Assembly (NCBI GenBank): GCA_902551735.1 | Contig: CACDEK010000001.1 | Span: forward strand, 1-49,418 | Direction: 5' to 3' | Origin: an uncultured Pelagibacteraceae bacterium | Lineage (GTDB): Bacteria > Pseudomonadota > Alphaproteobacteria > Pelagibacterales > Pelagibacteraceae | Length of the DNA: 49,418 nucleotides | Shown: one piece after another, positions 18,430-20,510 of the stretch | Numbering within the stretch: position 1 is the stretch's first letter | How the letters are laid out: each line of letters begins with the position of its first letter | Made by a program: the position numbers and the translations under genes | Notes under the pieces: model-generated | Told to the model about the DNA's origin: nothing | The model's input: only the letters and a program-made list of their open reading frames with translations | Database searches by the model: none

Positions 18430-19161
18430 ATGAAAGAAATTAAATGGATTAAATCCATTAGTATTTGGATATTTATTATTCCTTTTCTAAGTGTAAATTT
18501 TTGCTTAATTTTTAATCAAAGTTTTCCTTCTGGAGAGGGGCCTTTTGCGATAGGCGATACTATAGCGGATAAAGCATCAGATTGGATAATTCCATATATA
18601 GATGGAAATAACTCAATTAGTAGGGTTGTAAGAGTTTTTCCAAATAGTTTAATTTTTAAACCTTCAATGATTATTACTTCTATATTGCTTATTTTTTATT
18701 GGATTTATAATGCTCAACTAATTAAAACCATTAATTCAGACCACAAACATATTAAAAAAATTTTATTTTTTGGAATAGGATCAGCAATATTCTTATCTAT
18801 TCACTCTATATTTCTTGGAATAAAGTTCGATATTTCAATATTTAAACTATTAAGAAGAATAGTTCTTTTAGCTTTCATCATTTTTGAAATTGTTGCCCAA
18901 GCTTATTTAATTGTAATATTATTTAATATTAAAAATAAAATATCTCATTTAATAAATGAAAAAATTTTAAAAATAAAAAGAATATTAGTAACCATTTTAA
19001 TTTTAGTAGCAATAATCACGATACCATTTCTTCCATTTAATAACTTAAAAACTCTAAAATATTTACTTGAATGGAATTACTTTCTGGGAGTAATTTTATT
19101 TTATCTATTGACATTTTTAATGTGGAAGAAACCTCATTCACACACCCTTTCGGGCGTGTGA
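18430..19161 (+). CDS. Hypothetical membrane protein (about 6 TM)
   Basis: 243 aa, PYIDGNNSISR loop motif, terminal LEWNYF helix. The last codons overlap the antisense ncRNA's 3' hairpin. Confidence 0.75.
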   Translation: MKEIKWIKSISIWIFIIPFLSVNFCLIFNQSFPSGEGPFAIGDTIADKASDWIIPYIDGNNSISRVVRVFPNSLIFKPSMIITSILLIFYWIYNAQLIKTINSDHKHIKKILFFGIGSAIFLSIHSIFLGIKFDISIFKLLRRIVLLAFIIFEIVAQAYLIVILFNIKNKISHLINEKILKIKRILVTILILVAIITIPFLPFNNLKTLKYLLEWNYFLGVILFYLLTFLMWKKPHSHTLSGV

Positions 19162-19305
19162 TGAAATTTGGCTCGTCGTTGTATGCGCTACCGCCAAGCC
19201 ATGACCGCTCTGCAATTTTAGCGCTACTCTGCAGAACTTTCTGCCCTCTAGGCTTGAACCTCTCGGTTTTTCCCCAGATGGCCAGTTAAGAGTTGCCTCT
19301 TAATT
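19132..19305 (-). ncRNA. Structured non-coding RNA of about 175 nt, family unassigned
   Basis: 84/160 G+C over 19141-19300. On the minus strand there are two GNRA-capped hairpins (UUAAGAG-GCAA-CUCUUAA at 19286-19303; CACACGCCC-GAAA-GGGUGUGUG at 19139-19160), G-U wobbles that work only on this strand, internal hairpins and a U-rich tail. A TATGAT -10-like element lies at 19313-19318. Confidence 0.8.
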
Positions 19306-19376
19306 AATTACATCATATTTTAATTAAAAATTATTTGTATCACTTTTTAGTTGATTAATTTTTTCAATTAAAATCT

Positions 19377-19394
19377 TGTGGATAACGGGGATAA
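19377..19394 (-). promoter_or_regulatory. Tandem DnaA boxes (one perfect, one with 2 mismatches)
   Basis: TGTGGATAA at 19377-19385 is the reverse complement of TTATCCACA. The abutting CGGGGATAA at 19386-19394 reads TTATCCCCG. Confidence 0.55.
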
Positions 19395-20510
19395 TTATTT
19401 TTTAATCCATCCACCGCCTAAAACTTTATAACCCTTGCTATTTTTTGAGTAAAAAACACATGCTTGACCTGGTGAAATACCGAACTCATCTTCAAGTAAT
19501 TTAACTGTTGCAAAATTATTTTTTAATTCAACTTTAGCTTTAATTAGTTTTCCAGTTGATCTGACTTTTACATATATTTCATTATTAAAATATTTTTTAT
19601 CTGCTAATAAATTTAAATCTTTTAAGTTTATTGATGGTTTGATTAATTTTTTTTTTGATCCTACTAAAATTTCATTTTTTTCATGATTTATATCAATCAC
19701 ATACAAGGGCTCACTAGAAGCAATTCTTATTCCTTTTCTTTGTCCAATTGTAAAGTTAACAATACCATCATGTACTCCAATAACTTTGCCAACGGTATCT
19801 TTGATATTTCCTTTTTTAAATGCGTCAGGTCTAAGCTTTTCAATAACAGATACATAATCTCCATTAGGAACGAAACATATATCTTGACTATCAGGTTTAT
19901 CAGCAACATTTAATTCTAATTTTTTTGCTACTTCTCTTGTTTGGGCTTTCCGCATGTTTCCTAAAGGAAATCTTAGATAATTTAACTGTTCTCTTGTGGT
20001 ATTAAATAAAAAATAACTTTGATCTCGGTTTTCATCAACGGCCCTGTACATATCTGTTATATTTTGATTTGTAATACTTTTTACATAGTGACCTGTTATT
20101 AAAGCATCAGCTTTTAAATTTTTTGACTCTTGAAATAAATCGTTAAATTTTACTGTTTTATTACATTGAATGCATGGAATTGGTGTTTCACCTTTAAGAT
20201 AACTTTCAACAAAATTATCTATAACTCCTTCCCTAAATTTATTTTGATAATAAAAAACTTTATGTTCTATATTTAGTTTATGTGCGACTCTTTTTGCATC
20301 CATAATATCTTGCCCAGAGCAGCACTGTTTGGAATGAGCAACTTCCTTATTGTCATCGTAAAGTTTTAAAGTAATTCCTATAACTTTATATCCTTCTTTT
20401 TTCATTATTCCTGCAACAGTTGAGGAATCTACACCTCCCGACATTGCTACAACTACTGTTGTATCTTTTGGTTTTTTTTCTAAACCTATTGAATTAGTTT
20501 TTAAATTCAT
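19395..20510 (-). CDS. mnmA: tRNA 2-thiouridine(34) synthase
   Basis: [51 protein letters not shown]. Confidence 0.97.

Follow-up and report, generated by a model that had tools for sequence, protein, structure and literature searches.

An IMES-2 small RNA gene in a Pelagibacteraceae contig and covariation between two of its hairpin loops

The locus and its RNA family

The window analysed here, a contig of 49 418 nucleotides from an uncultured Pelagibacteraceae bacterium, contains a compact structured element on the minus strand, between the tRNA-modification gene mnmA and a convergent ORF of 243 amino acids that belongs to no Pfam family (Table 1). mnmA lies upstream on the same strand and ends 85 bases before the element's Rfam match; the ORF runs towards it from the other side, and its last codons enter the terminator hairpin of the RNA. 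The preliminary description, made from the sequence alone, had stated that no co-directional gene follows the element, and this holds: there is none here, nor is there a constant one across the homologous loci.

When the whole window was searched with cmscan, the sole match was Rfam family IMES-2 (RF02035), at 19310-19168 on the minus strand (159.5 bits, E = 4.6e-42, cut-off 54.7). The match is full-length and above the gathering cut-off. A more permissive Rfam scan of the region added two chance-level matches only, and neither a tRNA nor a tmRNA was found in the window. All four consensus helices of the family (P1-P4) are present, and the genome from which the window comes (G000, 64% complete) carries one copy. 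We regard it as virtually certain that the element is a complete gene for the catalogued SAR11 small RNA IMES-2. The preliminary description had named IMES-2 as a guess, correctly, while calling the stretch unannotated, which was wrong. It had also foreseen that a strong Rfam match would end the novelty of the element and not its status as an RNA, and cmscan gave such a match: the RNA family is already known. IMES-2 has its host in marine SAR11 bacteria, where the gene itself is ordinary; the motif reportedly stems from Weinberg, Perreault, Meyer and Breaker (Nature, 2009), and both that study and Shi 2009 are said to have recorded very high IMES-2 abundance.

The literature searched, which leaves most subscription journals outside its coverage, yielded neither a function for IMES-2 nor a study dedicated to it. 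The term 'IMES' is absent from the available portions of PMC2864571 and PMC2704228, and the parts of PMC5069720 examined contain nothing on the IMES-2 RNA.

Table 1. Features of the IMES-2 locus (positions in the window)
Feature	Position	Strand	Basis or remark
mnmA, upstream neighbour, outside the element	19395..20510	-	Pfam tRNA_Me_trans
Conserved upstream element CA..N..GnGAT (here ATCA-N9-TGAT)	19337..19355	-	about 32-50 nt before the predicted start
-10-like box TATGAT	19312..19317	-	T, A, T invariant in a 22-row alignment
IMES-2, Rfam RF02035	19168..19310	-	model positions 1-141 of 141
Predicted whole transcript, ~177 nt	19129..19305	-	z -6.9; contig ends are weak hints
P1 hairpin, GCAA (GNRA) loop 19296-19293	19286..19303	-	100% of cells paired
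P2 long hairpin, A-rich internal loop, GAGA cap 19264-19261	19241..19285	-	covariation
P3 hairpin, loop 3 19229-19215, kissing strand G19224-U19220	19207..19237	-	Rfam and covariation
P4 hairpin, loop 4 19191-19179, kissing strand A19189-C19185	19170..19200	-	Rfam and covariation
Loop 3 / loop 4 kissing helix (predicted)	19185..19224	-	U19220-A19189, C19221-G19188, G19222-C19187, C19223-G19186, often G19224-C19185
Terminator-like hairpin, GAAA loop, UUUCUU tail	19126..19166 (stem-loop 19166-19132)	-	sequence
243-aa hydrophobic ORF, convergent neighbour, outside the element	18430..19161	+	no Pfam family

The composition and folding of the element agree with what had been described. Its core is the G+C-richest 160-nt stretch of the window (84/160, or 52.5%, at 19140-19299, in a window of 28.8% G+C), matching the earlier figure of about 52%. 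The predicted fold of the minus strand (-74.8 kcal/mol, z = -6.4) is better than that of the plus strand (-57.3 kcal/mol, z = -4.3), in keeping with the orientation first proposed. The stems CUGCAG/UUGCAG and UGGCUUG/CGAGCCA, the GCAA hairpin, the GAAA hairpin and the UUUCUU tail all occur where they had been placed, and so does the duplicated word GUAGCGC, found on the minus strand at 19227-19221 and 19191-19185. The window copy shares the four helices and the loop words of the Rfam family and differs from it in a P3-P4 linker that is 2 nt longer. As printed, the Rfam model leaves loops 3 and 4 unpaired and ends before the terminator hairpin; covariance models do not display pseudoknots, and the printed model is silent on any helix between the two loops.

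Upstream of the RNA lies a conserved element. GnGAT, which was also the search anchor for this count, occurs in 246 of 249 distinct upstream regions, with a C ten bases ahead of it in 244 of those 246. A weight matrix that included the site of G000 itself ranked this site first in that genome (25.7 bits, the second match scoring 15.8). The element is likely a contact site for an activator or for the polymerase; given that by weight matrix it stands alone in G000, the IMES-2 promoter may have a dedicated activator. A regulon was not apparent, with 18 weight-matrix matches in G000 as against 15 in a shuffle. In one related genome (G069) a single second high-scoring copy of the element was observed (L412:13845-13863, 20.3 bits), flanked on one side by a transporter-like ORF and on the other by an ABC substrate-binding-like gene, both labelled by eye.

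A TATGAT box just upstream, pointed out in the preliminary description, is at 19317-19312; the word is frequent, with 40 occurrences in the window. Of 116 distinct upstream motifs, 61 have TAnnnT at the corresponding distance. At the other end, the terminator-like hairpin lies beyond the Rfam model and reaches into the end of the convergent ORF. A hairpin of -10 kcal/mol or lower stands behind the RNA in 221 of 222 homologous loci, in sequences that differ from one another. A simple promoter and terminator scan called neither the IMES-2 promoter nor its terminator.

Four marine RNA libraries from four studies, picked because they hold this stretch, contained 177, 4301, 163 and 609 contigs that fall on 19000-19700, almost all of them inside 19120-19311. 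Such contigs indicate presence, as distinct from level, strand or ends, and the uncovered flanks are uninformative given the lower conservation of the flanking genes relative to the RNA. Contig ends were not reported to accumulate at any position. Of the listed contigs, two have their start at 19305 and another, an exact piece of 61 bases that crosses the terminator type of this genome, stops at 19129; these are weak hints at the limits of the transcript.

Distribution and gene neighbourhoods

The occurrence of IMES-2 was analysed in several sets of genomes. It was found in 21 of 36 genomes of the same genus and in 0 of 24 genomes of another family. A more complete draw gave 77 of 150 genomes of the family Pelagibacteraceae, covering 9 of 12 genera, with the window's genus represented by 7 of 47 genomes. 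In a further draw, 22 of 79 family genomes carried the RNA as against 0 of 41 from the other family and 0 of 14 controls. All named records with a true match are Pelagibacteraceae, Pelagibacterales or Pelagibacter. Pattern matches outside SAR11 were set aside as chance: of 120 genome loci, 15 lacked a profile match. No phage copy was seen: 124 viral loci were collected, 4 by the exact P1 pattern and 120 by a loose 3' pattern (120 of about 2500 matches, mostly chance), and under the alignment profile none proved to be more than a short piece. IMES-2 is thus confined to SAR11 (Pelagibacteraceae), where it is patchy and has been lost in many lineages. Because many complete genomes of the genus lack it, it is dispensable. 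The complete genome G013 has no profile match anywhere and no remnant, and inspection by eye of the ogt-like locus in five genomes without the RNA likewise revealed no remnants.

The genes around the RNA change from lineage to lineage. In same-genus relatives it lies beside a recombinase-like ORF in 21 of 21 cases, mostly with an ogt-like ORF after it; both labels reflect recognition by eye, as opposed to a library match. Among 255 loci with a match (loci and not genomes, some contigs being counted twice), mnmA lies upstream in 114, the convergent ORF alone was recognised in 5 more and the recombinase/ogt setting accounts for 124; a further 11 have no recognised neighbour and 1 is a truncated copy. 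Three more settings, in two other genera and in genome G342, bring the gene neighbourhoods of IMES-2 to five. The 243-aa ORF is conserved beside mnmA, including in genomes without the RNA at that site: both genes were found at 21 of 29 mnmA loci of same-genus relatives, with a gap of 6-22 bases compared with 273 here. The mnmA site is common to several other genera and, in this unrooted comparison, may be the older one.

The upstream motif and the 3' hairpin accompany the RNA at nearly all loci while its neighbourhoods vary, and the motif is present in nearly all genera as well. Because of its patchy, SAR11-only occurrence and its five gene neighbourhoods, IMES-2 is a self-contained, stand-alone gene and not a leader. 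The original view of a stand-alone RNA, as opposed to a riboswitch, also fits the lack of a constant co-directional gene downstream.

Two aberrant copies were observed. Genome G342 has a divergent IMES-2 (L456, G342:C1:309576-309703, minus strand, 69.7 bits) in which a GCAA tetraloop stands where loop 4 would be; it keeps the loop 3 palindrome, lacks the upstream element, has a neighbourhood of its own and is either a decaying copy or a natural variant. At L063:263-405 a truncated copy breaks off after loop 3 and is immediately followed by a recombinase-like ORF, presumably through a rearrangement or as an amplification chimera.

Covariation between loops 3 and 4

For the analysis of covariation, 191 distinct full-length copies were reduced to 109 at a threshold of 95% identity and aligned without reference to structure. 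The truncated row L063 was kept out of the counts over 108 rows and retained in the helix-pair and shuffle tests. The preliminary description had looked to covariation among homologues as a check on the RNA, and it is present: with the Rfam helices and a helix between loops 3 and 4 taken together, 94.2% of cells are paired and 33 of 43 pairs have two-sided changes, compared with 31-43% paired cells when the partners are slid by 1-3 columns. P2 has two-sided changes in 9 of 11 and 3 of 4 pairs, and its cap is non-GNRA in the five most divergent rows. The P1 loop is GNRA in 108 of 108 rows, most of which were chosen by a search pattern that contained this loop; divergent copies found by model have GCGA or GUAA.

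The kissing positions were absent from both search patterns. In the loop 3 / loop 4 helix taken alone, 99.8% of cells are paired and two-sided changes number 50; shuffles gave 9.2, with none of the 500 reaching the observed value, in a control that ignores kinship. Of its four pairs, two vary and hold ranks 4 and 8 among 9591 column pairs by corrected mutual information; the other two are invariant, hence uninformative. Every one of the 108 rows keeps 4 bp of Watson-Crick pairing, and 95 of them keep 5 bp. At the variable positions six loop states were found, all of them complementary (CG/CG 77, UA/UA 13, UG/CA 7, CA/UG 6, AA/UU 3 and UU/AA 2). On a tree built without those columns, six states need 11 changes where the minimum is 5; the tree has few columns and leaves 44 of 105 forks open. 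The helix-base-to-kiss distances are 14 nt in 104 of 109 rows and 11 nt in 109 of 109, and the linker measures 3-6 nt. The exception, outside the 108 rows, is the G342 copy, where the partner loop 4 is missing. A sixth pair, A19219-U19190, was considered and not counted, being kept in just 91 of 108 rows.

From this covariation, loops 3 and 4 very probably form a loop-loop helix, which may already have been published, in Weinberg 2009 or its supplement. The kissing-loop contact proposed earlier is thereby supported in substance and altered in detail: the partners are GCGCU in loop 3 and AGCGC in loop 4 and not two identical GCGC cores. The identical 7-mer had been treated as a feature of the RNA; GUAGCGC occupies both loops in just 48 of 108 rows, and the 7-mers of the two loops agree in 57, so that the word is not a required feature. 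Its duplication here follows from a kissing helix that, in this lineage, is by chance a palindrome.

Beneath loop 4, P4 positions 19194 and 19176 carry a non-standard purine pair, G-A in 92 of 108 rows and A-G in 16, a switch that suggests a conserved tertiary motif.

Possible modes of action

Sequence cannot tell a kiss within one molecule from a kiss between copies. The reading that we tentatively prefer, while rating it at slightly less than even odds, is that of a stable trans-acting RNA which works by its fold, with the kiss inside one molecule. Transcription would start from the gene's own promoter at about 19305 and run to the hairpin at about 19129; the kiss would then set P3 and P4 side by side, P1 would stack on P2 and the P1 GNRA loop would dock on a helix. 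The product would be a compact particle acting in trans by its shape, neither a switch nor a sequence-specific sponge, and such a stable, abundant RNA might hold or titrate a cellular partner. A familiar parallel is the L2-L3 kiss of the purine riboswitch aptamer, where loop-loop pairs clamp two neighbouring short hairpins side by side. IMES-2 resembles it in having neighbouring short hairpins with loop-loop pairs, and differs in that no closing helix or three-way junction is among the top covarying pairs and no downstream gene is fixed.

A partner was sought by comparing two genomes with the RNA (G000 and G069) with one without it (G013). This gave 44 candidate ORFs of the 64% complete G000, which G069 also has and which are weak or missing in G013; among them no RNA-binding protein or regulator was recognised by eye. 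Of 245 ORFs exclusive to G069, 150 were scanned against Pfam; they were mostly lineage genes and included no partner protein. Among five other positive genomes, RNase PH was detected in none and an RNase D-like protein in one, weakly. The job of IMES-2 is now more testable, since natural swap variants exist for its 4-5 bp loop-loop helix, its GNRA loop and its upstream element are conserved, and complete genomes of close relatives are at hand both with the RNA and lacking it.

The same covariation would also fit a kiss between loop 3 of one molecule and loop 4 of the next, with the P1 GNRA loop as a second interface, building an RNA-only ring, cage or filament that serves as scaffold or store. 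Precedents exist: the kissing loops of ROOL and GOLLD, predicted by covariation, turned out by cryo-EM to be intermolecular bridges (PMC12286853), and manA RNA, under 200 nt like IMES-2, forms a 60-mer cage via loop-loop and GNRA-receptor contacts (bioRxiv 10.64898/2026.07.01.735769). All are structured bacterial RNAs with covarying kissing loops, but they share no sequence or family match with IMES-2, and their assembly was seen by cryo-EM where that of IMES-2 would be a prediction; neither report mentions IMES. The three-genome comparison, which found no dedicated protein partner, is compatible with an RNA-only assembly. However, only one pair of loops is seen to kiss, neighbouring hairpins of fixed and similar length suit contact within one molecule, and for the conserved P1 GNRA loop no receptor was identified. 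We consider assembly between copies unlikely, though it is the main rival, and give the same odds to an RNA-only self-assembling SAR11 particle whose dedicated promoter would have an activator site of its own. If the kiss did join copies, a widespread ocean bacterium would possess a small RNA that assembles with itself, comparable to those whose structures cryo-EM has recently provided.

Two readings of the repeated loop word, dimerisation and a two-site sponge, go back to the preliminary description; the 108-row counts rule out a palindromic GCGC dimer and an identical-word sponge as required features. A symmetric homodimer through the loop 3 palindrome UAGCGCUA would have the more stable predicted duplex: pairing of loop 3 with itself comes to -10.9 kcal/mol, compared with -6.7 for its 5-bp duplex with loop 4. 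The dinucleotide at the centre forms a palindrome in 90 of 108 rows, and the G342 copy has held on to the palindrome despite the loss of loop 4. Yet the loop 3 six-mer is self-complementary in just 82 of 108 rows and fails in 26, and 18 rows with a non-palindromic centre still match loop 4 exactly. Homodimerisation is accordingly improbable as the general mode, although it may be a side state in this lineage.

A two-site protein sponge, displaying the same loop word twice after the logic of CsrB, appears just as improbable. In its favour, a G-n-A-G start and adenines on the flanks are retained in both loops, and G, A, C and U of loop 3 and U, A and G of loop 4 are invariant in 108 of 108 rows. 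Against this, the variable bases of the two 7-mers track each other as complements, the same word is not conserved in several copies as in a CsrB-type multi-site sponge, and the 44 ORFs of the incomplete G000 offered no RNA-binding candidate.

Slightly more doubtful still is a role as stand-in for 6S RNA, binding RNA polymerase. 6S RNA is an abundant stand-alone RNA of similar length, no match to it (RF00013) was obtained in 30 of 30 genomes of the SAR11 order while 5 of 14 control genomes have one, and the high abundance reportedly noted in Weinberg 2009 would suit the role. However, IMES-2 does not match RF00013 and folds differently, without a long rod with a central bubble, and 6S is equally undetected in genomes that lack IMES-2; replacement was rejected, there being no link between the absence of the one and the presence of the other.

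Least probable is a cis-regulator, which in most Pelagibacter would be a leader to the ogt-like gene and here a 3' element of mnmA: the ogt-like ORF does directly follow the RNA in most same-genus relatives and mnmA precedes it at 114 of 255 loci, but the five neighbourhoods speak against such a role, both genes occur without the RNA in other genomes, and a hairpin with a U-tract parts the RNA from the next gene.
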